This document shows positions 6,337 through 50,013 of a DNA stretch of 52,133 bases, one piece after another. A program made the translations under genes and the position numbers. The stretch comes from a phage. The notes beneath the pieces were generated by a model, which had not been told where the DNA came from, did no database searches, and saw nothing but the letters and a program-made list of their open reading frames with translations. The stretch is from the sequence record OZ470597.1. One strand, given 5' to 3'. Numbering within the stretch: the first letter of the stretch is position 1; each line of letters begins with the position of its first letter.

Positions 6337-6364
6337 TTGCACGTTTAACAAAAAATGCTATCAT
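6337..6364 (+). promoter_or_regulatory. sigma70-like promoter upstream of major capsid gene (TTGCAC-16-TATCAT), overlapping a reversed copy of the conserved element
   Basis: -35 at 6337-6342, -10 at 6359-6364; conserved element gtttaacaaaaaatgctat at 6343-6361. Confidence 0.4.
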
Positions 6365-10101: not shown

Positions 10102-10121
10102 CTTTTAACAAAAAGTGCTAT
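10102..10121 (+). promoter_or_regulatory. conserved element copy (reverse orientation) upstream of tail chaperone gene
   Basis: cttttaacaaaaagtgctat between terminator 10041-10063 and RBS of gene 10135. Confidence 0.35.
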
Positions 10122-14651: not shown

Positions 14652-15382
14652 TGATTAGTGCAAAAATAAAACTTGAAATAATGCAGCACGTAAAAGATGA
14701 ATACCCGCGCGAGGCGTGCGGTGTTATCACTCAAAAATCACGCGTGCAAAAATACCGCCGCATAACCAACGTACATGATGATCCTGAAAATCATTTTGAG
14801 ATGGACGCAATTGAATACGTTGAAGCGTGCGAAAGTGGCGAGCTTATTGCTGTTGTGCATAGCCACACTGGAGACGGGGCAAGTACAATTCCAAGCGCCC
14901 ATGATACATGCATGTGTGATGAAATGGGTGTTTCATGGGTTATTGTGTCATGGCCAGAAGGTGATATGAGGATCATTGAGCCTGAATCTCGTCCTCTGAT
15001 TGGTCGCCCGTGGTCGCTTGGGGCGTATGATTGCTGGGGGCTTATTATGGCATGGCACAAGCAACATGGAGTTATCCTGAATGATTTCAGGAAACCATAT
15101 GAATGGTGGAAGCCTGAGCACGGTGAAAATCTTTATCAAGAAAATTATCTGAAAGAGGGTTTTATTGAAACAGGAGAGCCGCCAAAACCTGGTGATATGG
15201 TTATCTTTCAGCTTTCCGCGCCAGTGTGGAATCATGCAGGCATTTATCTTGGCAACAATCAGTTGCTTCATCATGCCTTTGGTAAATTGTCGAGGGTTGA
15301 TTTGTATTCTGGATGGTATCAGGAACATGCAAAAATGGTTTGTAGACATAAGGATCTGAAATATGACTTTGAAGGTAATTAA
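14651..15382 (+). CDS. tail tip assembly protein (lambda K-like; JAB/MPN + NlpC/P60 domains)
   Basis: AVVHSHTGDGASTIPSAHD (JAMM-like) and YDCWGL...H (NlpC/P60 Cys/His) motifs, collinear with lambda K. Confidence 0.85.
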   Translation: MISAKIKLEIMQHVKDEYPREACGVITQKSRVQKYRRITNVHDDPENHFEMDAIEYVEACESGELIAVVHSHTGDGASTIPSAHDTCMCDEMGVSWVIVSWPEGDMRIIEPESRPLIGRPWSLGAYDCWGLIMAWHKQHGVILNDFRKPYEWWKPEHGENLYQENYLKEGFIETGEPPKPGDMVIFQLSAPVWNHAGIYLGNNQLLHHAFGKLSRVDLYSGWYQEHAKMVCRHKDLKYDFEGN

Positions 15383-16039: not shown

Positions 16040-19000
16040 ATGGCTGAAAATATGATAACGGGCAGTAAGGGTGGATCATCAAAACCTTATGTGCCGAAAG
16101 AGATGGAAGATAACCTGATCTCAATCAACAAAATCAAAATCCTTCTTGCCGTTTCCGATGGCGAGTGCGATCCAGATTTTACACTTCGCGATCTGTATCT
16201 TGATGATGTTCCGGTAATTGCAGACGACGGAACTGTTAACTACCAGGGTGTGAAAGCTGAATTTAGACCTGGAACGCAGACGCAAGATTACATCCAGGGG
16301 TTTACTGACACATCAAGCGAAGTGACGCTGGCGCGTGACATTACTACATCAAATCCTTATGTAATTTCTGTAACCAACAAAACATTATCGGCTATCAGAA
16401 TTAAAATGCTAATGCCAACAGGCATTAAGCAAGAAGATAACGGGGATCTTGTAGGTGTTAATGTCACTTATGCTGTTGATATGGCTGTTGACGGAGACTC
16501 TTACAAAGAAGTATTGCGAGACACTATCGAAGGTAAAACGCGTTCCGGTTACGACAGAAGCCGAAGGATTGACCTTCCTGCATTTAATGATCGCGTATTA
16601 CTTAGGGTTAGAAGGGTTACGGCAGACAGCGCATCTTCTCGCGTTACTGATCTGATTAAGCTACAAAGTTACGCTGAGGTTATTGATGCAAAATTCCGTT
16701 ATCCTCTGACTGGTCTTGTATACGTTGAATTTGACAGTGAGTTGTTCCCTAACCAGATCCCTAACATTTCAATCAAGAAGAAATGGAAGTTAATTAATGT
16801 TCCGAGCAATTACGATCCGGTAATGCGAGAGTATCACGGTTCATGGGATGGTACTTTCAAGAAAGCGTGGTCGAACAATCCGGCGTGGGTTCTTTATGAC
16901 ATTATCACAAACCAGCGATACGGATTAGATCAGCGAGAACTTGGTGTGCAGGTTGACAAATGGAGTCTTTACGAAGCGGCGCAATACTGCGATCAGAAAG
17001 TGCCGGATGGAAAAGGCGGTACAGAGCCGCGTTATCTATGCGACGTTGTGATTCAAAGCCAGATTGAGGCTTATCAGCTTATTCGTGATATTTGCTCAAT
17101 CTTCCGAGGCATGAGCTTTTGGAATGGCGAGAGCTTGTCAATCGTCATTGATAAGCCGCGCGATCCGTCGTACATCTTCACCAATGACAACGTTGTTGAT
17201 GGTGATTTTCAGTACACAACAGCAAGCGAAAAGAGCATGTACACGCAGTGCAACGTGACGTTCGACGACGAACAAAACATGTATCAACAGGACGTAGAGG
17301 GCGTATTCGACACCGAGGCAGCATTGCGCTTTGGATACAATCCTACAAGCATAACCGCGATCGGATGTACACGCAGGAGTGAGGCTAATCGGCGCGGTCG
17401 ATGGATACTAAAAACCAATTTGCGCAGCACTACGGTAAACTTTGCTACTGGACTGGAAGGCATGATCCCATCAATAGGTGATGTGATTGCTATTGCTGAC
17501 AATTTTCACAGCAGCAACCTTAAGTTAAACCTATCAGGGCGCGTGATGGAAGTTTCCGGCTTGCAGGTGTTCGTTCCGTTTAAGATTGACGCGCGACCAG
17601 GTGATTTCATTATCATCAACAAGCCGGACGGAAAGCCAGTTAAGCGCACAATCTCAAAAGTAAGCGGTGACGGAAAAACCATTGAGCTAAACATTGGGTT
17701 TGGGTTTGAAGTTAAGCCGGATACAGTTTTTGCAATCGACCGCACTGACATTGCGTTGCAGCAATATGTTGTAACGAGTATCGGAAAAGGTGATGATGAT
17801 GATGAATTTACATACTCCATCACGGCTGTTGAATATGACCCTAACAAATACGACGAGATTGATTACGGAGTAAACATTGACGACAGACCAACTTCAATTG
17901 TCCAGCCTGACACAATGGCAGCGCCTGAAAATGTGCAAATATCCTCATACTCGCGAATTGTCCAGGGTGCAAGCGTTGAAACAATGGTTGTGTCGTGGGA
18001 TAAAGTACCTTACGCATCGCTGTATGAAATGCAATGGCGAAAAGGTGATGGCAACTGGCTGAATACACCACAGACTGCAAACAAAGAAATTGAGGTTGAA
18101 GGTATTTATTCAGGAAACTACCAGGTAAGGGTTAGATCTGTTTCTGCTTCCGGTTCTACGTCTCCTTGGTCCAGAATTGTGACAGCTTCACTGACTGGTA
18201 AGGTAGGAGAGCCAGGCGCGCCAATTAACTTAACAGCATCCGACAATGAGGTGTTTGGCATTCGTGTTAAGTGGGGGATGCCAGAAGGGAGCGGAGACAC
18301 GGCATACATTGAGCTTCATCAGTCGCCAGATGGAACAGCGGAAAACTCAAGCCTGTTAACGCTGATCCCATATCCACAATATGAATACTGGCACGGTACG
18401 CTTCCGGCTGGTCATGTTGTATGGTATAGAATCCGCAGCGTTGACAGAATCGGCAACGTTTCCGGCTGGACTGATTTTGTTAGAGGCATGGCTTCAGATG
18501 ATGTGGAGGCTGTTTTAGGCGATATTCTTGATAAGATTTTTGATACCGAAGCAGGAAAGGATCTGAAAGAGAATGCCATTGATAGCGCAAACAAAATCAA
18601 GGATCAGGCACAAAGCATCATTCAAAACGCATTGGCGAATGATGCAGACGTCAGGATTATGAGGAAGGAAAACGGAAAACGCAAAGCCGAATTCAGGCAA
18701 TCAATCCAATTGATCGCAAGTGAAACTGAGGCGCGCGTTACCGCAATGACGCAACTCAAGGCTGAATTTGACGAGGAAATAACTAGCGAAGTAACGAGGC
18801 TTGATCAGGCAATTGCAACAGAATCGGAAACGCGAGCAACAGCCATTGAGGAATTGAAATCACAGATTGGTGATGATATTCAGGGGCAATTAACGCGGGT
18901 TGAGGAAGCGATTGCAAACGAAACAGAGGCGCGCGTTTCGGCTGATACAGCATTAACAGCGAAGTTTGGAGATGTTGAATCGGCGCTGACTGAAAAACTT

Positions 19001-20745: not shown

Positions 20746-20788
20746 ACTATACACGATCTTACAGCATGCGTTTAGCAAAAAGTGCTAT
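20746..20788 (-). promoter_or_regulatory. conserved-element promoter (ATAGCACTTTTTGCTAAAC + extended -10 TGTATAGT) for Cor-like lipoprotein gene
   Basis: element 20769-20788 on minus strand, -10 at 20746-20751. Confidence 0.5.
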
Positions 20789-22278: not shown

Positions 22279-22359
22279 ACAGCACAAATAGCTAAACAAA
22301 TGAAAAATACGGTGTTATAATTCAACGCATAAGTTAACAACAAGAGTAAGGAAATAAGC

Positions 22360-29008: not shown

Positions 29009-29062
29009 ATGCACCTCAAACAAAAAGCCTGACAGATGATAACATCATGCCAGGCATTGTTT

Positions 29063-29536
29063 TTAGCAATTAGTGCTTTCAGGTTTATACAGGAATCCGC
29101 CAGGTTCATAATCTGACATTCTTACCACTCGCAACATTTCACGCTTATCACATCTCTTTGTGAGCGGTTTGCCATTGGAATCAAATCGCAGATCTGGACG
29201 GCAGAATGAAGCTCGATAGCCTTGACAGCCATACTTTTTGTAATCGTTATGCACCTTTTGAGCGCCAGCGGCTGAAATCATACCGCGAACACGCCACTGA
29301 TTTACGGTTTGCTGGCTAACGTTAAGACGTTTTGCCATTGCTGACACGCTTCCGTAATACTCAATAAGGATGTCAAGTCGCGCTTTTAGTCCGGCGCGCA
29401 CTTCATCTTTTAAAACATAGTATCCTGTAGGGCGCTTGCGCTTTTTCTTATCTTTACCCCGTCGAGTTCCGTTATTGCCATTAATTGTGCGCTTGTCAAT
29501 CTTGCCTGTTGATACTGCGATTCGCTGTTCTTTCAT
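29063..29536 (-). CDS. HTH-domain DNA-binding protein (putative transcriptional regulator)
   Basis: 157 aa; basic N-terminus and helix-turn-helix SVSAMAKRLNVSQQTVNQW; divergent from helicase gene. Confidence 0.55.
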   Translation of the reverse strand: MKEQRIAVSTGKIDKRTINGNNGTRRGKDKKKRKRPTGYYVLKDEVRAGLKARLDILIEYYGSVSAMAKRLNVSQQTVNQWRVRGMISAAGAQKVHNDYKKYGCQGYRASFCRPDLRFDSNGKPLTKRCDKREMLRVVRMSDYEPGGFLYKPESTNC

Positions 29537-29549
29537 TATTCATTCTCCA

Positions 29550-29592
29550 ATAGCATTTTTTGTTAAACGATGATTTAATGATTGTGTATTAT
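29550..29592 (+). promoter_or_regulatory. conserved-element promoter upstream of helicase gene
   Basis: ATAGCATTTTTTGTTAAAC 29550-29568, 18-nt spacer, -10 TATTAT 29587-29592. Confidence 0.5.
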
Positions 29593-31665: not shown

Positions 31666-32071
31666 TAAAGGCGATTATCTGGAGTTTTACGAAAGAGATC
31701 CGACAGATACGCTAAAAGAGGAATCGCACCAGATCGGGGCGTTTCAATGGTTGACTTATGCTCATCCTGAATTACTGGCATGGCATACGAAAAACGAGGG
31801 CGACAAGGGGATCGCCACCGCAATGATGGATCAGCAAGCTGGGCTTGTTAAGGGCGTAAGTGATTTTATCATCCTGATTGGATTAAAAGGTCGTTACCCG
31901 TTCGCGGCAATTGAGATGAAGCGCGTCAATAAGTCCGGCAAGGGTAAGGCTTCACCAGTCAGCAAGGACCAAAAAGCCTTCTTGCGTCGTGTGCGTGAGC
32001 TTGGCGGATTCGCTGCCGTAACATACGGATATAAGCAATTCATGATCGCTGTAGAATACATGATGAAATAG
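31652..32071 (+). CDS. VRR-NUC domain nuclease
   Basis: 139 aa; PD-(D/E)XK-type SDFIILI...AAIEMKR motif typical of VRR-NUC. Confidence 0.6.
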   Translation: MAMTDKGDYLEFYERDPTDTLKEESHQIGAFQWLTYAHPELLAWHTKNEGDKGIATAMMDQQAGLVKGVSDFIILIGLKGRYPFAAIEMKRVNKSGKGKASPVSKDQKAFLRRVRELGGFAAVTYGYKQFMIAVEYMMK

Positions 32072-32111
32072 CACTTTTTGTTAAAACAGGCGCGAAGGAT
32101 TGCGCCATAAT
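32068..32111 (+). promoter_or_regulatory. conserved-element promoter upstream of dam
   Basis: ATAGCACTTTTTGTTAAAAC 32068-32087 overlapping upstream stop TAG; GC-rich inverted repeat spacer; -10 CATAAT 32106-32111. Confidence 0.55.
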
Positions 32112-32851: not shown

Positions 32852-33091
32852 ATGCAGAAAGAAAGAAGCGTTTATTTAAATGAAACTGGAGAGTGGTTGT
32901 TATTTCGCGCTATGGTTTGCGAGGCGCTTGATAAAAACGATTTCATAAAACCGCTATTAGGTTGCGATCCGTGGGAATTTACAAGCGCGCTTGACATGAG
33001 CTTCGAGGAAACAAGAAAACTACCGCTTGAAAAATGGCATGAGCAGATCGGTAAAGACTTGCAAGAGTTTTACGAATCAGCATCAAAATAG
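32852..33091 (+). CDS. hypothetical protein
   Basis: ATG 32852 (the listed ORF start 32765 overlaps dam); 79 aa; stop TAG lies inside the next conserved promoter element. Confidence 0.45.
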   Translation: MQKERSVYLNETGEWLLFRAMVCEALDKNDFIKPLLGCDPWEFTSALDMSFEETRKLPLEKWHEQIGKDLQEFYESASK

Positions 33092-33131
33092 CACTTTTTG
33101 TTAAAACGCCCGGCCTTGTGTCGGGCATAAT
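33088..33131 (+). promoter_or_regulatory. conserved-element promoter
   Basis: ATAGCACTTTTTGTTAAAAC 33088-33107 overlapping stop TAG; spacer hairpin GCCCGGCCTTGTGTCGGGC; -10 CATAAT 33126-33131. Confidence 0.55.
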
Positions 33132-39323: not shown

Positions 39324-39367
39324 ATTATGCCAGGCTTTTACACCTGGCTTTTAACAAAAAGTGCTAT
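39324..39367 (-). promoter_or_regulatory. conserved-element promoter for 38909..39292 gene
   Basis: minus-strand ATAGCACTTTTTGTTAAAAG (39348-39367), spacer hairpin GCCAGGTGTAAAAGCCTGGC, -10 CATAAT (39324-39329). Confidence 0.55.
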
Positions 39368-40050
39368 TTTGCGTTAGCTTCAAAGACGGCGCGAGCAAAA
39401 CCGCGCGGTGTGAGGGAGCGGAGTTGCTTTGTTCTGGCAGACTTACCGCCTAAAAACTTCCAACCCCAAAAGAACATTACGCCCTCATCATTGCATAACG
39501 GCTTGCGTTCCGGTTCGGTAAATCCGTTGCCGCACCAGATAGCCGTCCTTTTTGTGTAGCCATCCTTTAGCGGCATCTTGGGGTGAAAAGATCCATCGGA
39601 TTCGTCCAGGTAGTTACCAAAATCGCGCGGATTGAAATAAAAATCAGGCTTGCGCCATAGCGTTGATAGTCGGCCTACAGGATTCTCAGCCATCCAGGGA
39701 ACACCGAAATGATTCCCGACAGTTTCAACCATGATTGCATTTTTGAGCGCGACCTGAACATCATCATCGCTTCGCGCGTGCTTGATTCCTGATTGGGCAA
39801 ACATGGTGCAGTCTGGAAATCCAAATACAATATCTGGTTTTGGAATATCCATCTTACTGATTCTTTCAATGAAATTTTCATCAATCCACATATTCACATA
39901 ATGCAGATTTTCATGCTTCATCTTGATGAAATATTCGCCGTGATTTCCTTCATCAGCGTTAAAGCAATAGCATTGATAGCCAGCCTTAGCATATTCAAGC
40001 AGCATGATTCCAGATCCATCAAACATTGAGTAAGCAACTTTATTTCCCAT
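39364..40050 (-). CDS. C5-cytosine methyltransferase-like protein (divergent, compact)
   Basis: FDGSG (motif I-like), GFPDC (motif IV PC-like), ENP (ENV-like) at spacing typical of C5-MTases; start uncertain (ORF extends to 40110, overlapping the HNH gene). Confidence 0.4.
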   Translation of the reverse strand: MGNKVAYSMFDGSGIMLLEYAKAGYQCYCFNADEGNHGEYFIKMKHENLHYVNMWIDENFIERISKMDIPKPDIVFGFPDCTMFAQSGIKHARSDDDVQVALKNAIMVETVGNHFGVPWMAENPVGRLSTLWRKPDFYFNPRDFGNYLDESDGSFHPKMPLKDGYTKRTAIWCGNGFTEPERKPLCNDEGVMFFWGWKFLGGKSARTKQLRSLTPRGFARAVFEANAK

Positions 40051-40567
40051 GATTTTTATGATACCCCAATTCATTCTCGGCTTTACGTTTTGCGGCAACA
40101 GCATCTCCAAAACTGGAGAAACAACCTATATAAATCCTACATCCTCGCTTTCCGCTTCCAACCCTTACAACCCATTTTCCATGTTTATTTTTATGCACAC
40201 CTGGTATGCCACTTGTATTGTTTTTCTGCTTTGATGTGTTTCGCATATTTCCTTTGTGATCTTTTAATTCAAAGTTTATTGCTCTGTTATCAGTAGTAAT
40301 GTGATTTACGTGATCAACCTCCATTCCTTCCGGTATAGGCCCATAGTGCATTTCATAGCATATTCTATGAACTTTCAGATTATAACGCTTTCCATTTACA
40401 GTAAGTGCGGTTTCTAAATATCGACCACCACTACCCAAAGAGCCAACCTCATTACCAGCATTGCAAGCATTCCATTGTTTAACTCTTGATTGGTGAATAT
40501 CTTTTCTTTCTTTCCAGAACAGCTTTCCAGTTTCTGGATTGTATGTAAAGTAATCGTGCCAATTCAT
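40040..40567 (-). CDS. HNH homing endonuclease (paralog)
   Basis: 175 aa; MEVDHVNHITTDNRAINFEL HNH motif, C-terminal ELGYHKNHGK; GAGGTGA RBS. Confidence 0.8.
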   Translation of the reverse strand: MNWHDYFTYNPETGKLFWKERKDIHQSRVKQWNACNAGNEVGSLGSGGRYLETALTVNGKRYNLKVHRICYEMHYGPIPEGMEVDHVNHITTDNRAINFELKDHKGNMRNTSKQKNNTSGIPGVHKNKHGKWVVRVGSGKRGCRIYIGCFSSFGDAVAAKRKAENELGYHKNHGK

Positions 40568-41185: not shown

Positions 41186-41359
41186 TATGCAATCCTCATT
41201 ATATTTGGTGTGGTAACTATACCAGGTTTGAGAAATATTGTTTATCAATTATTGCTATCAGTTGAAATAGCTATGGCGCTTTGCTCGCTTTCCGCCTCCG
41301 CCATAATGATCATTTGCAACAGCTACCATCCAGGAATTATGGAATATTATTAGCTTCAT

Positions 41360-41641
41360 CTAATTAATGCCAACAACGTTAAAACTTACAGCTTTTGTTG
41401 CGCTAAACACATACGCTTCAACAGCCTCACCAAATACACGAATTTTTCCATAGCCGTACTGCGCATTCATATTGCGCCAAACCGTCCTGTTAGAGCAGAA
41501 CGCGCTACCAGTCTTGATGAGATTATCCATCTCTTTTCTTATGTCATGATAATCAAGCCAGAATCTATAAGCGCGTTGTTTAATGAGTTTCGCCTTGATT
41601 GTTTCGGCTGAGTTTTTAAAATCGCTGTTTTTGTAGGCCAT
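41360..41641 (-). CDS. hypothetical protein
   Basis: 93 aa, GGAGG RBS, start overlaps upstream stop (TAATG). Confidence 0.5.
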   Translation of the reverse strand: MAYKNSDFKNSAETIKAKLIKQRAYRFWLDYHDIRKEMDNLIKTGSAFCSNRTVWRNMNAQYGYGKIRVFGEAVEAYVFSATKAVSFNVVGIN

Positions 41642-41835
41642 TACACAACCTCCATAAAAGTATTGAATCCACGCAGTTTGAAAGCGTTGCCATGTTTAAC
41701 AACGTTCCATGTCAGGCCGGAGTGATACGCAACCATATCATCAAGATCAATGGTGATGATAGCGCCTTTCTTAAAGATTCCTTTCTCGTGAGTGGTGTCA
41801 CGCTGTGCAACTTTAACATCAACCTGTGTTTCCAT
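41641..41835 (-). CDS. hypothetical protein
   Basis: 64 aa; conserved promoter element and conserved leader upstream. Confidence 0.5.
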   Translation of the reverse strand: METQVDVKVAQRDTTHEKGIFKKGAIITIDLDDMVAYHSGLTWNVVKHGNAFKLRGFNTFMEVV

Positions 41836-41866
41836 TTTTAAATCCTAGTTCGTTGTCGATGCGCTT

Positions 41867-41910
41867 AATATACCAATCAGAGGCGCATCGGTTTTAACAA
41901 AAAGTGCTAT
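41867..41910 (-). promoter_or_regulatory. conserved-element promoter for 41641..41835 gene
   Basis: minus-strand ATAGCACTTTTTGTTAAAAC (41891-41910), -10 TATATT (41867-41872). Confidence 0.5.
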
Positions 41911-42197
41911 TCAACAACAGATCCAGTTAAAGAGATAAGCTGCCTTGTGCTCTTGTGTCTGCGATACTGACGCGCAACAACCGGAAGATTTTCACCGCTC
42001 TGATGACCAAAACAGATCGGCAACTCACCCTCAAGAGAGCGGAAGCCGCCAAATTCAAGATCCCGAACTGGCTTCGTGCGCCAGGCTTCAATAAATCCGC
42101 GCTCGTCACGAGTGATATAGCGGTATATGTTCGGGAGTGGCAATTGTATCCCCTCAAAATCCACGGTATCGGTATAGCTGTAAAACTTAGAACTCAT
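41907..42197 (-). CDS. hypothetical protein
   Basis: start at ATG 42197 with GGAG RBS (the listed ORF start 42212 lies further upstream). Confidence 0.45.
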   Translation of the reverse strand: MSSKFYSYTDTVDFEGIQLPLPNIYRYITRDERGFIEAWRTKPVRDLEFGGFRSLEGELPICFGHQSGENLPVVARQYRRHKSTRQLISLTGSVVE

Positions 42198-42339
42198 AGT
42201 CAACAACTCCAAATTCGTTTACGATTTGCGCCTTGTAGAAGCCGCCATTTTTCGCAAGGTTGTAGCATGCCGCCACAGTTTCAAATTCGCGCACTTCCGG
42301 CTGGCTGTTTTCGTGTTCCCAGGTAATCAGAGTAACCAT
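42187..42339 (-). CDS. hypothetical small protein
   Basis: 50 aa ORF (MVTLITWEHENSQ...) behind a duplicated promoter-leader module. Confidence 0.35.
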   Translation of the reverse strand: MVTLITWEHENSQPEVREFETVAACYNLAKNGGFYKAQIVNEFGVVDYEF

Positions 42340-42372
42340 TTTCAAATCCTCGCATTCGTTGTCGATGTGTGT

Positions 42373-42416
42373 AATGTACAGTAATACGATGATTGAGTTT
42401 TAACAAAAAGTGCTAT
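42373..42416 (-). promoter_or_regulatory. conserved-element promoter for 42187..42339 gene
   Basis: minus-strand ATAGCACTTTTTGTTAAAAC (42397-42416), -10-like TACATT (42373-42378); leader conserved with the 41867-41910 copy. Confidence 0.45.
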
Positions 42417-42683
42417 TTAGTCCAGGAATTCGATTTCGCGCTCGCCAGTTAACGGATCTTTAATCCAGAATCCAAGCGCCTCACCGTAAATACCGCCATA
42501 GAATCCAAGCGCCGACAGATCCTCACCGTTAACAAATACCAGATCCCCGCTACGGCTTACGTGAGACACGTTAACGATAACCGGAAATGTACGATCCTTA
42601 AATGCAGGCCGCAGGGCGTAACACCCGTTATTGAGCAAACGTGCTTTGCGCTTAACTGGAATAGGTGCATTGATTCGCGCCAT
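42417..42683 (-). CDS. hypothetical protein
   Basis: start at ATG 42683 with AAGGAG RBS. Confidence 0.5.
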   Translation of the reverse strand: MARINAPIPVKRKARLLNNGCYALRPAFKDRTFPVIVNVSHVSRSGDLVFVNGEDLSALGFYGGIYGEALGFWIKDPLTGEREIEFLD

Positions 42684-43248: not shown

Positions 43249-43292
43249 ATTATGCCAAATCCAGTCAGGCACGTTTTAACAAAAAGTGCCAT
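43249..43292 (-). promoter_or_regulatory. conserved-element promoter for 42939..43210 gene
   Basis: minus-strand ATGGCACTTTTTGTTAAAAC (43273-43292), -10 CATAAT (43249-43254). Confidence 0.55.
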
Positions 43293-43611
43293 TTGCTGAC
43301 TGGTCATTATTCCATCTATTCCATTAATCAGGAATAACAGGAATAACTCATTCTCGATCACCTGGATTGTGAGACTTTGAGTTTGATCAATTTTAATCAG
43401 TTGATTAACTTTTTGTGTGGAGGGGATAGAGAAACGCGATCCTCTCGCATCCTTTCCGGCAATCCTGGTGAGCGCAACTGTTGTCTTCTGTTATCGCTGT
43501 TGTGCGTGTTATTCCGGCGTGGAATCGCATAACAAAAAATAACAAGAAAAATCCATATAACATACTAAAAAATAAGGATTATTTATTTATATGTATCTAT
43601 AAATTATTATC

Positions 43612-43690
43612 TGTTATGTGTGTTATGTGGTTATATTGATACCTGGTGTATTTTTGGTGGTTGTGTGTGGTTGTGTGTTGGTTGGTGTGT
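43612..43690. repeat. GT-rich tandem repeats in divergent early control region
   Basis: TGTTATGTG x2 (43612-43629) and GGTTGTGTG x2 (43659-43677); shares GGTTATGTG-type motif with 20860-21030. Confidence 0.5.
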
Positions 43691-43890
43691 ATATATGGGG
43701 TGTGGGGCGTATCCGCGCATTTTTAGATAACACGCAAAAACAACATTGATTTATAAGAAAAAAAAACGCGAATCTTGTTATGTTATGAAAAGATAACATC
43801 GGAAAACCGCCGGTAACAATAAAAAACAGTTGACACACCAGGTGGCGGTAAATGATGATGCAGTCACTGAGTCACGAGGAGGTATAAAGC

Positions 43891-44361
43891 ATGAGTGAAT
43901 CTGTATTTACAAATGAGCTTCGCAAGGTTGCGATTGCGCTCGCATCTGGATTGCACGAATCGATCCAGATACCTGAAAGATGGGTAAGGCAGCACCTGGA
44001 GGGTAAGAAGTCAGCCAGCAATGCTGGATCATATATCCGTCAGATTATGGGGCGCGTTCCAGAAGTGGCGGAGAAGGGGAGAGTTTCAGTCTCAAAGAAA
44101 CCTTACGGCCCTGATAGCGAATATTTCGGAGAAAATTACTTTGATGTGGCGATTGTTAGTGCGCCGAATCGCAGGGTGTACAACAAGGCCGCGCTTGAGA
44201 AGGCTGTAGCGAAAGCAAAACGCCAGGTTGCTGAGTCGATGCTTAAAGTCTCACCAAACCTAGCGAACTACTCGCCAGATGAATATGAAACACTTGCTAA
44301 GGCGATCGCAGACTTTCACGCGATCATTAAAGAAACATATCTTAACGATGAGGAACAATAA
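43891..44361 (+). CDS. hypothetical protein (first gene of rightward early arm)
   Basis: 156 aa, GAGGAGG RBS. Confidence 0.5.
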   Translation: MSESVFTNELRKVAIALASGLHESIQIPERWVRQHLEGKKSASNAGSYIRQIMGRVPEVAEKGRVSVSKKPYGPDSEYFGENYFDVAIVSAPNRRVYNKAALEKAVAKAKRQVAESMLKVSPNLANYSPDEYETLAKAIADFHAIIKETYLNDEEQ

Positions 44362-44362
44362 A

Positions 44363-44611
44363 ATGAGCAAACTTACTCTTGATGAACTGATGGAAAAAAT
44401 TGATGAAGTTGGCTTTAACAAACTGGTTGATTTCCACTTGACCGCATGTGAAATCACCGCGCAGGAGTTTAGCGACATGCTATCTGATGCGAGCGAGATT
44501 TACACAAGCCTATGCGGAAGAGAAATCAAAGTCATTGAAATTGAAATGCCTGGAGATCCGGTATTTGCAAGGCTTGTGGCTGCATTCGATGAGGAGAATG
44601 TTGGACTCTGA
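44363..44611 (+). CDS. hypothetical protein
   Basis: ATG 44363 with GAGGAA RBS; 82 aa acidic. Confidence 0.45.
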   Translation: MSKLTLDELMEKIDEVGFNKLVDFHLTACEITAQEFSDMLSDASEIYTSLCGREIKVIEIEMPGDPVFARLVAAFDEENVGL

Positions 44612-44617
44612 GCGGAA

Positions 44618-44661
44618 ATAGCACTTTTTGTTAAAACGCCAGGCGCAAAACCTGGCATAAT
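44618..44661 (+). promoter_or_regulatory. conserved-element promoter
   Basis: ATAGCACTTTTTGTTAAAAC 44618-44637 overlapping stop; spacer hairpin GCCAGGCGCAAAACCTGGC; -10 CATAAT 44656-44661. Confidence 0.55.
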
Positions 44662-45081: not shown

Positions 45082-45125
45082 ATAGCACTTTTTGTTAAAA
45101 CTCAAAAACGATAACCAGGCATAAT
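45082..45125 (+). promoter_or_regulatory. conserved-element promoter
   Basis: ATAGCACTTTTTGTTAAAAC 45082-45101; -10 CATAAT 45120-45125. Confidence 0.55.
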
Positions 45126-46068: not shown

Positions 46069-46111
46069 ATAGCACGAATTGTTAAAACTCAAATGTGGGG
46101 CCAAGTATAAT
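46069..46111 (+). promoter_or_regulatory. conserved-element promoter (variant)
   Basis: ATAGCACGAATTGTTAAAAC 46069-46088; -10 TATAAT 46106-46111. Confidence 0.5.
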
Positions 46112-47131: not shown

Positions 47132-47289
47132 CCTGGTTACTTTTAATCTTTGTCACAAGTTACAATTCCGCCGCTATTGAATCGCAAGAGTTCCACGGCG
47201 AATCAAGATGCCAGGAAGCACGAAAACAAGTTGTTCTCCACATGTCAGATAGTGGGAAAGATGTAACAGCGCTATGCGTTCGTAAATAG
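47128..47289 (+). CDS. hypothetical small protein with signal-peptide-like N-terminus
   Basis: 53 aa ORF, start overlaps upstream stop (ATGA); stop TAG inside conserved promoter element. Confidence 0.3.
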   Translation: MTWLLLIFVTSYNSAAIESQEFHGESRCQEARKQVVLHMSDSGKDVTALCVRK

Positions 47290-47329
47290 CACTTTTTGCA
47301 AAAACACATTATCGGGCTTGCGGTATAGT
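47286..47329 (+). promoter_or_regulatory. conserved-element promoter (variant)
   Basis: ATAGCACTTTTTGCAAAAAC 47286-47305; -10 TATAGT 47324-47329. Confidence 0.5.
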
Positions 47330-48000: not shown

Positions 48001-48591
48001 ATGAAACGAGACATTATCATCCTTAACGGACCGCCAGGAGTTGGCAAAGATACGCTTGCGGCATACTTAACGGGCCATCGTTACGCAGCGGTTAAAGCGT
48101 CATTTAAACAGCCTATGTTCGATATTGCATTCTCCATGCTTGGCGTTTACCGATATGACGAGTTCATTGATCTGTATAACGACCGTGAGCAGAAAGAAAA
48201 GCCTCAAGCAATCTTGCAAGGCAAGTCTCCGCGACAATTCATGATCTGGATTAGCGAAGAAGTCATGAAGCCAGCTTTTGGCGAGCAATATTTTGGGAAT
48301 CGCATGGTTGAGCAAGTACACGAGATGTACAGAGATTTAGCTGTTGTAATTAGTGATGGAGGATTCCCTGAAGAAATCAAGCCGCTCGTTAAGGCAGGCC
48401 ATGAAGTTCACATTTGCCGACTGCATCGCGAAGGCTTCACGTTTGATGGCGATTCACGAAACTATATTGACCTGAGCGGATACCATCACCGAGTAAAACA
48501 TTACGACTTCACAATGATTGATGGCGATCCAGAAAAGACTGTTGACGAGATCATCAAAACTGTCAAGTGGAAACACATTAAGATCAAATAG
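48001..48591 (+). CDS. P-loop kinase (polynucleotide kinase / dNMP kinase-like)
   Basis: Walker A GPPGVGKDT at N-terminus; start at ATG 48001 with GGAG RBS (ORF extends to 47986). Confidence 0.6.
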   Translation: MKRDIIILNGPPGVGKDTLAAYLTGHRYAAVKASFKQPMFDIAFSMLGVYRYDEFIDLYNDREQKEKPQAILQGKSPRQFMIWISEEVMKPAFGEQYFGNRMVEQVHEMYRDLAVVISDGGFPEEIKPLVKAGHEVHICRLHREGFTFDGDSRNYIDLSGYHHRVKHYDFTMIDGDPEKTVDEIIKTVKWKHIKIK

Positions 48592-48631
48592 CACGAATTG
48601 CTAAAAGCGGGGCGCAATGCCTCGCTATAAT
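48588..48631 (+). promoter_or_regulatory. conserved-element promoter (variant)
   Basis: ATAGCACGAATTGCTAAAAG 48588-48607; -10 TATAAT 48626-48631. Confidence 0.5.
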
Positions 48632-49429: not shown

Positions 49430-49554
49430 AAAGAGTAATTATCATTTTTATTGCCGTTATCGCTGGTTGCTACCTGGCTTATAATTATCCGTTATTGCTG
49501 GTTGCTACCTGGCTTATAATTATAGCGGCATTGTTGAGTCAATCGGCGGGTTGA
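49426..49554 (+). CDS. hypothetical small membrane peptide containing a 35-bp tandem repeat
   Basis: 42 aa hydrophobic ORF overlapping upstream stop (ATGA); coding status uncertain. Confidence 0.25.
   Translation: MKRVIIIFIAVIAGCYLAYNYPLLLVATWLIIIAALLSQSAG
49454..49523 (+). repeat. tandem direct repeat, 2 x 35 bp
   Basis: CCGTTAT(C/T)GCTGGTTGCTACCTGGCTTATAATTAT at 49454-49488 and 49489-49523, one mismatch. Confidence 0.85.
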
Positions 49555-49971: not shown

Positions 49972-50013
49972 TAGCACTTTTTGTTAAAACTTCCGCGAGG
50001 GCATTTGTTAAAG
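49971..50013 (+). promoter_or_regulatory. conserved-element promoter
   Basis: ATAGCACTTTTTGTTAAAAC 49971-49990; extended -10-like TGTTAAAGT 50005-50013. Confidence 0.45.

Follow-up and report, generated by a model that had tools for sequence, protein, structure and literature searches.

Why should two small, unrelated genes of a phage be preceded by almost the same promoter and leader? The question arises in sequence record OZ470597.1, a stretch of 52,133 nucleotides (nt) that was analysed whole and is referred to here as the window. It is about 93% identical to egaa and pSf-1, phages of the genus Hanrivervirus (Drexlerviridae, Tempevirinae), and is therefore an essentially complete T1-like phage genome. 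A first-pass annotation, made from the letters alone, had described a promoter-leader module duplicated in front of two small genes. Both copies, here modules A and B, lie on the minus strand, colinear and at the coordinates it gave, in the leftward arm of the early region, which is a series of small minus-strand genes. This early region is strongly mosaic, and relatives align to it in 8–12 pieces. We conclude with high confidence that A and B belong to a family-wide type of promoter-leader cassette. We also lean, somewhat beyond even chances, towards a fuller explanation in which these cassettes are class II sigma-70 promoters built on a marbox-type site, the site of the host regulators MarA, SoxS and Rob, and double as recombination joints. 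The parts of the two modules and the genes that follow them are given below, all on the minus strand; ORF stands for open reading frame and 5'UTR for 5' untranslated region.

41911 to 41891 (-): module A, 21-nt box AATAGCACTTTTTGTTAAAAC
41891-41910 (-): module A, marbox-type 20-bp box ATAGCACTTTTTGTTAAAAC, about -50 to -31
41873-41890 (-): module A, variable 18-nt spacer
41867-41872 (-): module A, -10 hexamer TATATT with TGG before it (extended -10)
41861 to 41849 (-): module A, 13-mer CATCGACAACGAA
41849-41860 (-): module A, leader box ATCGACAACGAA, with the start A(+1) at 41860 predicted from the -10
41836-41848 (-): module A, remaining part of the predicted 25-nt 5'UTR (CTAGGATTTAAAA), ATG at 41835
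41843-41846 (-): module A, Shine-Dalgarno AGGA
41641-41835 (-): gene after module A, 64 amino acids, Pfam PF25180 (phage antiviral trigger protein Gp54), E 1e-36
42417 to 42397 (-): module B, 21-nt box AATAGCACTTTTTGTTAAAAC
42397-42416 (-): module B, 20-bp box identical to that of A
42379-42396 (-): module B, variable 18-nt spacer, no significant stem-loop when folded against shuffles (z -0.56)
42373-42378 (-): module B, -10 hexamer TACATT (TATATT in phage egaa)
42367 to 42355 (-): module B, 13-mer CATCGACAACGAA
42355-42366 (-): module B, leader box ATCGACAACGAA, with the start A(+1) at 42366 predicted from the -10
42340-42354 (-): module B, remaining part of the predicted 27-nt 5'UTR (TGCGAGGATTTGAAA), ATG at 42339
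42347-42351 (-): module B, Shine-Dalgarno GAGGA
42187-42339 (-): gene after module B, 50 amino acids, Pfam DUF7170, E 1.5e-28
41907-42197 (-): second gene of the module B unit, 96 amino acids, no family found, its start overlapping the DUF7170 stop

Aligned with each other, the modules share a single order of parts: AATAGCACTTTTTGTTAAAAC (21/21), an unrelated 18-nt spacer, a -10 hexamer, a 6-nt discriminator (aagcgc in A, acacac in B) and CATCGACAACGAA (13/13), followed after 2–4 nt by AGGATTT(A/G)AAAATGG (AGGATTTRAAAATGG). The near-identical leaders that had been claimed are thus real and in place, and the likeness reaches beyond the promoter element into the leader. The coding sequences downstream are dissimilar, as had also been proposed: BLASTP between the two proteins gave nothing significant (E 0.012 over 19 residues), and Pfam assigns one to Gp54 and the other to DUF7170. 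Exact matches to the 13-mer occur in the window only in these two modules, and their leaders are the most similar of 171 window leader pairs (score 18, median -2). Their spacers are 26% identical, compared with a mean of 30% over all module pairs. The TAG within the box of module A (41907-41909) is the stop codon of the upstream 96-amino-acid ORF, and the TAA of the gene upstream of module B (42417-42419) abuts the box. What did not hold is the view of the resemblance as a private pair or a local duplication, as the box is present in 15 copies and the module in about 20 in the window, and both recur in phages T1, TLS and Rtp.

The 15 copies of the 21-nt box, counted at up to three mismatches, compare with an expectation of 0.02, and T1 and Rtp contain numbers of full modules similar to that of the window. 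Modules pooled from the window, T1 and Rtp (n = 60 or n = 54, depending on the count) show an architecture with rigid spacing that is conserved over three subfamilies. In 48 out of 60, exactly 20 nt separate the 15-mer core of the box from a TAnnnT -10 hexamer. The -10 hexamers are TAnnnT or CATAAT, often with TGn directly 5', and an A stands 6 nt after the -10 in 42 of the 54 modules, preceded by a C in 30. At the position of a -35 element (17-bp spacing), 51 of 54 modules have at most three of six matches to TTGACA. The TTGTTA or TTGyTA within the box was rejected as a -35 element, as it lies 22 bp from the -10. A standard sigma-70 scan of the window for a -35 plus a -10 called neither module A nor module B, and it is because the -35 is absent that standard annotation misses these modules. 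By their variable positions, the boxes fall into three classes (TTT, GAA and AAA/TAA). Between orthologous modules of the window, egaa and pSf-1, substitutions occur in the spacer and the discriminator, with box, -10 and leader box invariant; the blocks therefore appear constrained rather than recently copied. Judged from these sequences, invariant blocks with unrelated spacers would fit selection or patchwise recombination better than a recent copy.

The box corresponds closely to a known host site. The marbox consensus, 5'-GCAHWWWWTGYYAAA-3', is the site of the monomeric AraC-family regulators MarA, SoxS and Rob, and of RamA in other enterics (PMC6900184). Boxes A and B match it at 15 of 15 positions, and the class-variable positions of the phage box coincide with its degenerate positions. 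In the window we found 15 exact matches to GCAHWWWWTGYYAAA (0.08 expected) and 20 with at most one mismatch (2.9 expected); exact matches number 11 in T1, 12 in TLS and 9 in Rtp, and T7 has none. Sites bound by these regulators in Salmonella, identified by chromatin immunoprecipitation sequencing, include GCACAAATTGCTAAA and GCACATTTTGTTAAA (PMC10268841). GCACAAATTGCTAAA is identical to phage cores, and these sites overall are the same as, or one base away from, the phage cores. By the published definition, class II marbox promoters have a forward box that overlaps the -35 position, sites clustered near -41 and no recognisable -35, and the soxbox of micF is centred at -41.5 (PMC9638938). The phage box is likewise forward, its GCAC lying on the promoter-distal side; it overlaps the position of a -35 and is centred at about -40.5 on the predicted starts. 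The Escherichia coli micF promoter reads ACAGCACTGAATGTCAAAAC, 18 nt, TAGAAT, 7 nt and G(+1), and the phage modules read ATAGCACTTTTTGTTAAAAC, 18 nt, -10, 6 nt and A, so that the distance from box to -10 is the same. A composite pattern of core, 20 nt and TAnnnT matched micF and 10–12 sites each in T1, TLS and Rtp, and none in T7; TLS, pSf-1 and T7 were analysed with pattern tools. A MarA/SoxS/Rob profile, built from hand-entered sequences, had no significant match among the ORFs of all six frames in the window and T1. With no recognisable MarA-like protein in either, a host factor is the simplest reader of the box. On this likeness of sequence, whether host activators of the MarA/SoxS/Rob type work at the phage boxes appears evenly balanced.

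The leader is a second conserved block. ATC(G/A)A(A/C)AACGA was found at the predicted +1, at up to two mismatches, in 26 of the 54 modules, compared with 0.3% of random positions; two T1 modules have the exact CATCGACAACGAA, and Rtp has close variants. The first-pass annotation had raised the possibility of shared post-transcriptional control, and control through an RNA structure of the leader finds no support here. Folded with the first codons, the predicted 5'UTRs of A and B show less structure than their shuffled versions (z +0.75 and +1.12), and an Rfam search of the leaders returned no match at E values up to 1. A linear RNA or DNA signal common to the leaders is possible. As DNA, the A/C-rich box at +1 could influence the choice of start site or promoter escape; as RNA, it could be an open region for ribosome loading or a site for a protein or nuclease.

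Structure is found further upstream instead. From the box to +5, the 54 modules give far more stable folds than shuffled sequences do (mean z -2.66, Wilcoxon p 1e-9), with z below -1.64, that is a significant stem-loop, in 34. The stem-loops lie either between the box and the -10 or around the -10 with the discriminator as the 3' arm. In module A, CGATGCGC (41883-41890) pairs with GCGCATCG (41857-41864) and encloses the -10 (-14.6 kcal/mol for the centroid, z -3.4). A terminator scan detected no T-tract terminator-like site at module A or B, and the module hairpins have no T-tracts. The stem-loops may serve as attenuators, protect RNA ends or have an effect at the DNA level. We also considered that the TTTTAA of the box may provide a T-tract with which the stem-loop acts against antisense transcription.

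The same modules mark the places where gene content changes. They occupy the entire intergenic space, and in 8 of the 19 window modules the upstream ORF ends with the TAG of ATAGCAC (e.g. 41907-41909, 32069-32071 and 39364-39366), with a TAA abutting the box in 5 further modules. With the upstream stop codon in or beside the box, box and gene end are therefore fused. Genome comparison delimits one unit running from module to module:

41911-42416 (-): 506-bp unit consisting of the module B core and leader, the DUF7170 gene and the 96-amino-acid ORF

Among the relatives, egaa, pSf-1 and JakobBernoulli carry this unit, and damhaus and BEK7 lack it. Damhaus has a single hybrid module, in which the flank upstream of B and the box are followed by the spacer, -10 and leader of A and a Gp54-like gene; the joining of a B-type flank to an A-type spacer places the crossover inside the box. 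BEK7 has a B-A-B-A patchwork, with the B flank, the box, the A spacer, -10 and discriminator, the leader box, a B-type distal leader TGCGAGGATTTG, AAAATGG and the A gene, and the switches fall at the conserved blocks. In blastn comparisons with four relatives, which are not independent of one another, 23 of 71 alignment ends lay within 30 nt of a module (13% expected), many of them exactly at the upstream edge of the box or at the ATG. Since box, leader box and AAAATGG recur before unrelated genes, they are also patches of homology for recombination, and it is likely that the conserved blocks serve as recombination joints. Of the idea of a duplicated cassette, the cassette itself thus stands, as relatives lack exactly the A-to-B unit and carry hybrid modules, whereas recent local copying is not borne out by spacers that are 26% identical and blocks that are family-wide.

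Taken together, these features suggest how each cassette would work. Each copy is a complete intergenic expression module. It begins with a forward near-consensus marbox, ATAGCACnnnTTGyTAAAAc, at about -50 to -31, often holding or abutting the upstream stop codon, followed by an 18-nt spacer that varies freely and often holds a GC-rich stem-loop, a -10 hexamer that is often TGn-extended and lacks a -35, and a 6-nt discriminator that is mostly GC-rich. Transcription would start at the A within C-A-T-C-G-A and give a short, unstructured, A/C-rich leader beginning with AUCGA(A/C)AACGA and ending in the Shine-Dalgarno sequence and the ATG. Host sigma-70 RNA polymerase would initiate as at class II MarA/SoxS/Rob promoters such as micF, with a monomeric host activator of this type on the box substituting for the absent -35 contact. 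Rob is the regulator of the three that is made constitutively. Through the conserved leader, all cassettes would start alike and keep the ribosome-loading region open, and modules A and B would bracket one exchangeable two-gene unit.

Several points weigh against a host-read marbox and against parts of this scheme. The likeness to the marbox was picked post hoc from many known motifs, and the boxes of the GAA class violate one W position of the consensus. Early genes would have to rely on activators that, without stress, are scarce (MarA and SoxS) or largely inactive (Rob), and the -10 elements are good and often extended, so that the promoters might fire with no activator at all. All promoter positions were predicted from the -10 hexamer, and binding and activation by the host regulators are our reading of the sequence; the MarA, SoxS and Rob queries for the homologue search were entered by hand; the breakpoint statistics count relatives that are not independent; and the role given to the leader box is putative. 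The box is also more conserved than host marboxes, including the ATA before GCAC and the TT before the G, and this could point to a dedicated, unrecognised phage protein as its reader. Such a protein is the basis of the first alternative, which we regard as unlikely. A DNA-binding protein encoded by the phage, acting as activator or as shut-off repressor ('stoperator'), would use the box as its operator, the marbox likeness would be a coincidence or mimicry, and the candidates would be the Cro/YdaS-like regulator encoded at 29063-29536 or an unrecognised small early protein. The far greater uniformity of the box and its extra conserved bases would suit an operator, the three box classes could mark temporal classes, and stoperator and enhancer-binding roles have been proposed for the repeat in TLS (PMC11447400). 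The partial dyad of the GAA class, TAGCA-N5-TGCTA, would suit a dimeric helix-turn-helix protein, but the GCA...TGC pseudo-dyad is already part of the marbox consensus. The rigid 18-nt distance, the single orientation and the missing -35 argue for an integral promoter element rather than a roadblock, boxes stand before the very first genes, which are transcribed ahead of any phage protein, and no AraC-family gene was found among the ORFs of the window and T1. Still less probable is a UP-like role, in which an A/T-rich box would be touched by nothing but the alpha C-terminal domains of the polymerase, and the promoters would work from extended -10 elements with no activator. The T5 and A4 tracts of the box and the TGn before many -10 hexamers agree with it, UP elements have been mentioned for TLS (PMC11447400), and phage early promoters are often factor-independent; yet the invariant GCAC and TG are unsuited to a purely A/T-rich element, the box extends to -31 and thus over the -35 position (UP elements lie at about -40 to -60), and TG at -15/-14 is not in every module. 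Among other known sites, sigma-54 was rejected on the sequence (TGGCAC-N5-TTGC against ATAGCAC-N3-TTGC, with spacing 2 nt short and GG absent), and sigma-32, IHF, the DnaA box, Fis and the T4 MotA box were excluded by inspection.

The remaining alternatives concern the likeness of A and B. That it stems only from common descent, through a recent local duplication of one promoter-leader cassette, agrees with their being the best leader pair of 171, adjacent (506 bp) and in the same orientation, and with the gain or loss of the intervening unit as one block. We nevertheless consider it very improbable, because the 26% identity of the spacers is at the level of any module pair, the same blocks, including an identical CATCGACAACGAA, occur in T1 with variants in Rtp, and orthologues hold the blocks invariant while their spacers change. 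The last possibility, for which we see a modest chance and which is compatible with the class II marbox explanation rather than exclusive of it, is that the leader is a post-transcriptional element, a linear site for an RNA-binding protein, nuclease or small RNA that coordinates a subset of early messages. AUCGA(A/C)AACGA stands at +1 in about half of the modules, over three subfamilies and also in Klebsiella phage KP15, and is invariant among orthologues. Its exact +1 position would suit start-site choice or promoter escape at the DNA level equally well, and the leaders have no structure, no Rfam family and no known binding partner.

Besides A and B, the following members of the family were identified in the window by pattern matching (with folding or leader scoring where a stem-loop or leader similarity is given):

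43275-43289 (-): marbox core, -10 CATAAT, leader ATCGAAACGAG
41241-41255 (-): one mismatch to the marbox consensus, -10 TATAGT
39350-39364 (-): spacer stem-loop, CATAAT, leader ACCGAAACGAA
38205-38219 (-): stem-loop around the -10 TATTAT, leader ATCAAAAGGAG
44621-44635 (+): first module of the rightward arm, leader ATCGAAACGAG
45085-45099 (+): leader of a different type
46072-46086 (+): GAA class
47289-47303 (+): leader ATCGACAACAAGCGAGGATTAAATCATGG, the next closest to the leaders of A and B
48591-48605 (+): GAA class
49974-49988 (+): member
32071-32085 (+): member
33091-33105 (+): leader ATCAAAACGAA
29553-29567 (+): 5' of the helicase gene
29062-29076 (-): 5' of the primase gene; overlaps the Cro-like regulator gene at its end
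20771-20785 (-): leader CAACAACAACGAAGGAG
22282-22296 (+): one mismatch, -10 TATAAT
10104-10118 (-): antisense to the structural gene block
6344-6358 (-): box copy with a weak -10, antisense to the structural gene block

The Cro/YdaS-like helix-turn-helix gene (29063-29536, minus strand), the only annotated regulator of the window and 60% identical to ST23 of T1, lies between the divergent modules at 29062-29076 (-) and 29553-29567 (+), which face the primase and helicase genes; a promoter of its own is not obvious. Antisense marbox-type boxes are also found in T1, at comparable places of its structural (late) block (15069-15083 and 18833-18847, both minus strand), and the box at 10118 in the window has a GC-rich hairpin about 25 nt downstream. 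The antisense boxes in the structural blocks of the window and T1 could be a source of short antisense RNAs. Around the early modules, about 1.3 kb (~43300-44600) with few convincing ORFs separates the first leftward module (43289) from the first rightward one (44621). The linear records of egaa and vojen start or finish near this place, which may be a packaging or terminal region. An HNH/AP2-type homing endonuclease gene (40040-40567, minus strand) is missing in egaa, pSf-1, damhaus and JakobBernoulli, where the alignments begin at 40567; it is probably a separate mobile insertion with no relation to the modules. A tandem repeat of a 35-nt unit with 97% identity (CCGTTATYGCTGGTTGCTACCTGGCTTATAATTAT) lies at 49454-49523 (+), and a TATAAT-like sequence closes each copy. 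In addition, about 20 unannotated 'Campylobacter phage' records (MG065673, MG065687, MG065640 and others) are about 89% identical to this coliphage-type early region, and they are probably T1-like contaminants or mislabelled.

An exact pattern of box, 19 nt, TAnnnT, 6 nt and ATCGA was found in at least 120 stretches of IMG/VR, and nearly all of the listed matches lie on contigs of 44–53 kb. One exception among them is Klebsiella phage KP15, a T4-like Slopekvirus, which has T1-type modules with the same ATCGAAACGA leader. Of the two KP15 modules within NC_014036 10042-10425, one has the box, a stem-loop GGGGTA...TACCCC that surrounds the -10, and ATCGAAACAAGG as its leader, and the second has CATCGAAACGAAAC as its leader and a larger hairpin of the T-tract terminator kind; both modules are annotated as 'putative middle promoter'. 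The presence of T1-type modules in a T4-like phage suggests that regulatory cassettes have passed between phage families.

The gene after module A links the modules to phage defence. Gp54 of phage Bas11, the founding member of PF25180, is a direct trigger of the defence protein CapRelSJ46, and escape mutations 'immediately upstream ... probably within its promoter' reduce gp54 expression (PMC11578894). Homologues of Gp54 were found in 214 phage records, with hosts that are nearly all typical for T1-like phages, and the whole 75-nt intergenic region upstream of gp54 in Bas11 is a module of the same type. By analogy, the escape mutations hint, as indirect experimental support, that the module may be a functional promoter.

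T1-like phages are common, are notorious laboratory contaminants and are candidates for phage therapy. Should the repeat prove to be a class II marbox, this would identify most of the family's promoters in one step, and phage expression would be tied to host regulators that answer salicylate, redox stress, bile salts and antibiotics. We tentatively propose, with a probability a little short of even, that in T1-like phages most transcription depends on about 20 near-consensus class II marboxes per genome, wired to host stress and antibiotic-resistance regulators, and that the same cassettes are the joints at which accessory genes, defence triggers such as Gp54 among them, are shuffled. Replicating phage genomes may also titrate MarA, SoxS and Rob. 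The hybrids of damhaus and BEK7 illustrate how small accessory genes beside a known immunity trigger of the Gp54 family come and go.

The box itself has been seen before. A re-annotation of TLS described a 21-nt direct repeat, aaATAGCACnnnTTGnTAAAA, with 21 occurrences along the direction of transcription and about 76 nt before start codons, also present in T1, Rtp and Rogue1, and proposed it to be a stoperator, an enhancer-binding site or a UP element; only three sigma-70-like promoters were annotated (PMC11447400). The window box agrees with this description, as in module A the distance from the box start (41911) to the ATG (41835) is 76 nt, and it has the same TTT, GAA and AAA sub-classes. 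The TLS account (PMC11447400) does not describe the fixed distance to the -10, the conservation of the leader, the stem-loops, the match to the marbox or the recombination junctions, and a literature search for the marbox together with T1-like phages found no paper. Known as a repeat, the box thus appears to be undescribed in the searchable literature as regards its marbox identity, core-promoter geometry, start and leader, stem-loop enrichment and hybrid modules.

In their behaviour as cassettes, the modules resemble the PeSL cassettes of the T4-type phages RB49 and phi1, in which a conserved early promoter has a stem-loop between its upstream element and the -10 or over the -10, with a Shine-Dalgarno sequence and an ATG at the 3' end, and which flank ORFans and mediate modular shuffling (PMC2839356, PMC4122927). 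Like these, the modules close with a Shine-Dalgarno sequence and an ATG, lie next to small accessory genes and contain junctions of indels between relatives, and many of them, though not all, add a stem-loop to the conserved promoter. Unlike PeSLs, which lie in hyperplastic regions of T4-type genomes and have stem-loops that terminate transcription, the phage modules belong to a Drexlerviridae genome, have a marbox-type box instead of a consensus -35 and A/T-rich tract, and were negative in the terminator scan at A and B; the stem-loop trait is present in module A (z -3.4) and absent from module B (z -0.56). The hybrid modules carry the PeSL idea of mobile regulatory cassettes beyond T4-type phages. 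T4 middle promoters likewise lack a -35, with a conserved box where it would be, and have a good -10, and a T1-type module of KP15 is annotated as such a promoter, with 'putative' added. Their MotA box (TGCTTtA) is centred at about -30, 11–13 bp from the -10, and MotA and AsiA are not known from T1-like phages; the phage box, by contrast, ends 18 bp before the -10 and differs in sequence. With class II marbox promoters such as micF, the modules share the consensus, the orientation, the missing -35, the distance to the -10 and a centre at about -41. Host marboxes are degenerate, whereas the phage boxes are nearly identical to one another and number about 20 per 50 kb of a virulent genome, and the phage modules supplement the class II arrangement of the host with a start and leader box that are conserved and, frequently, with a stem-loop.

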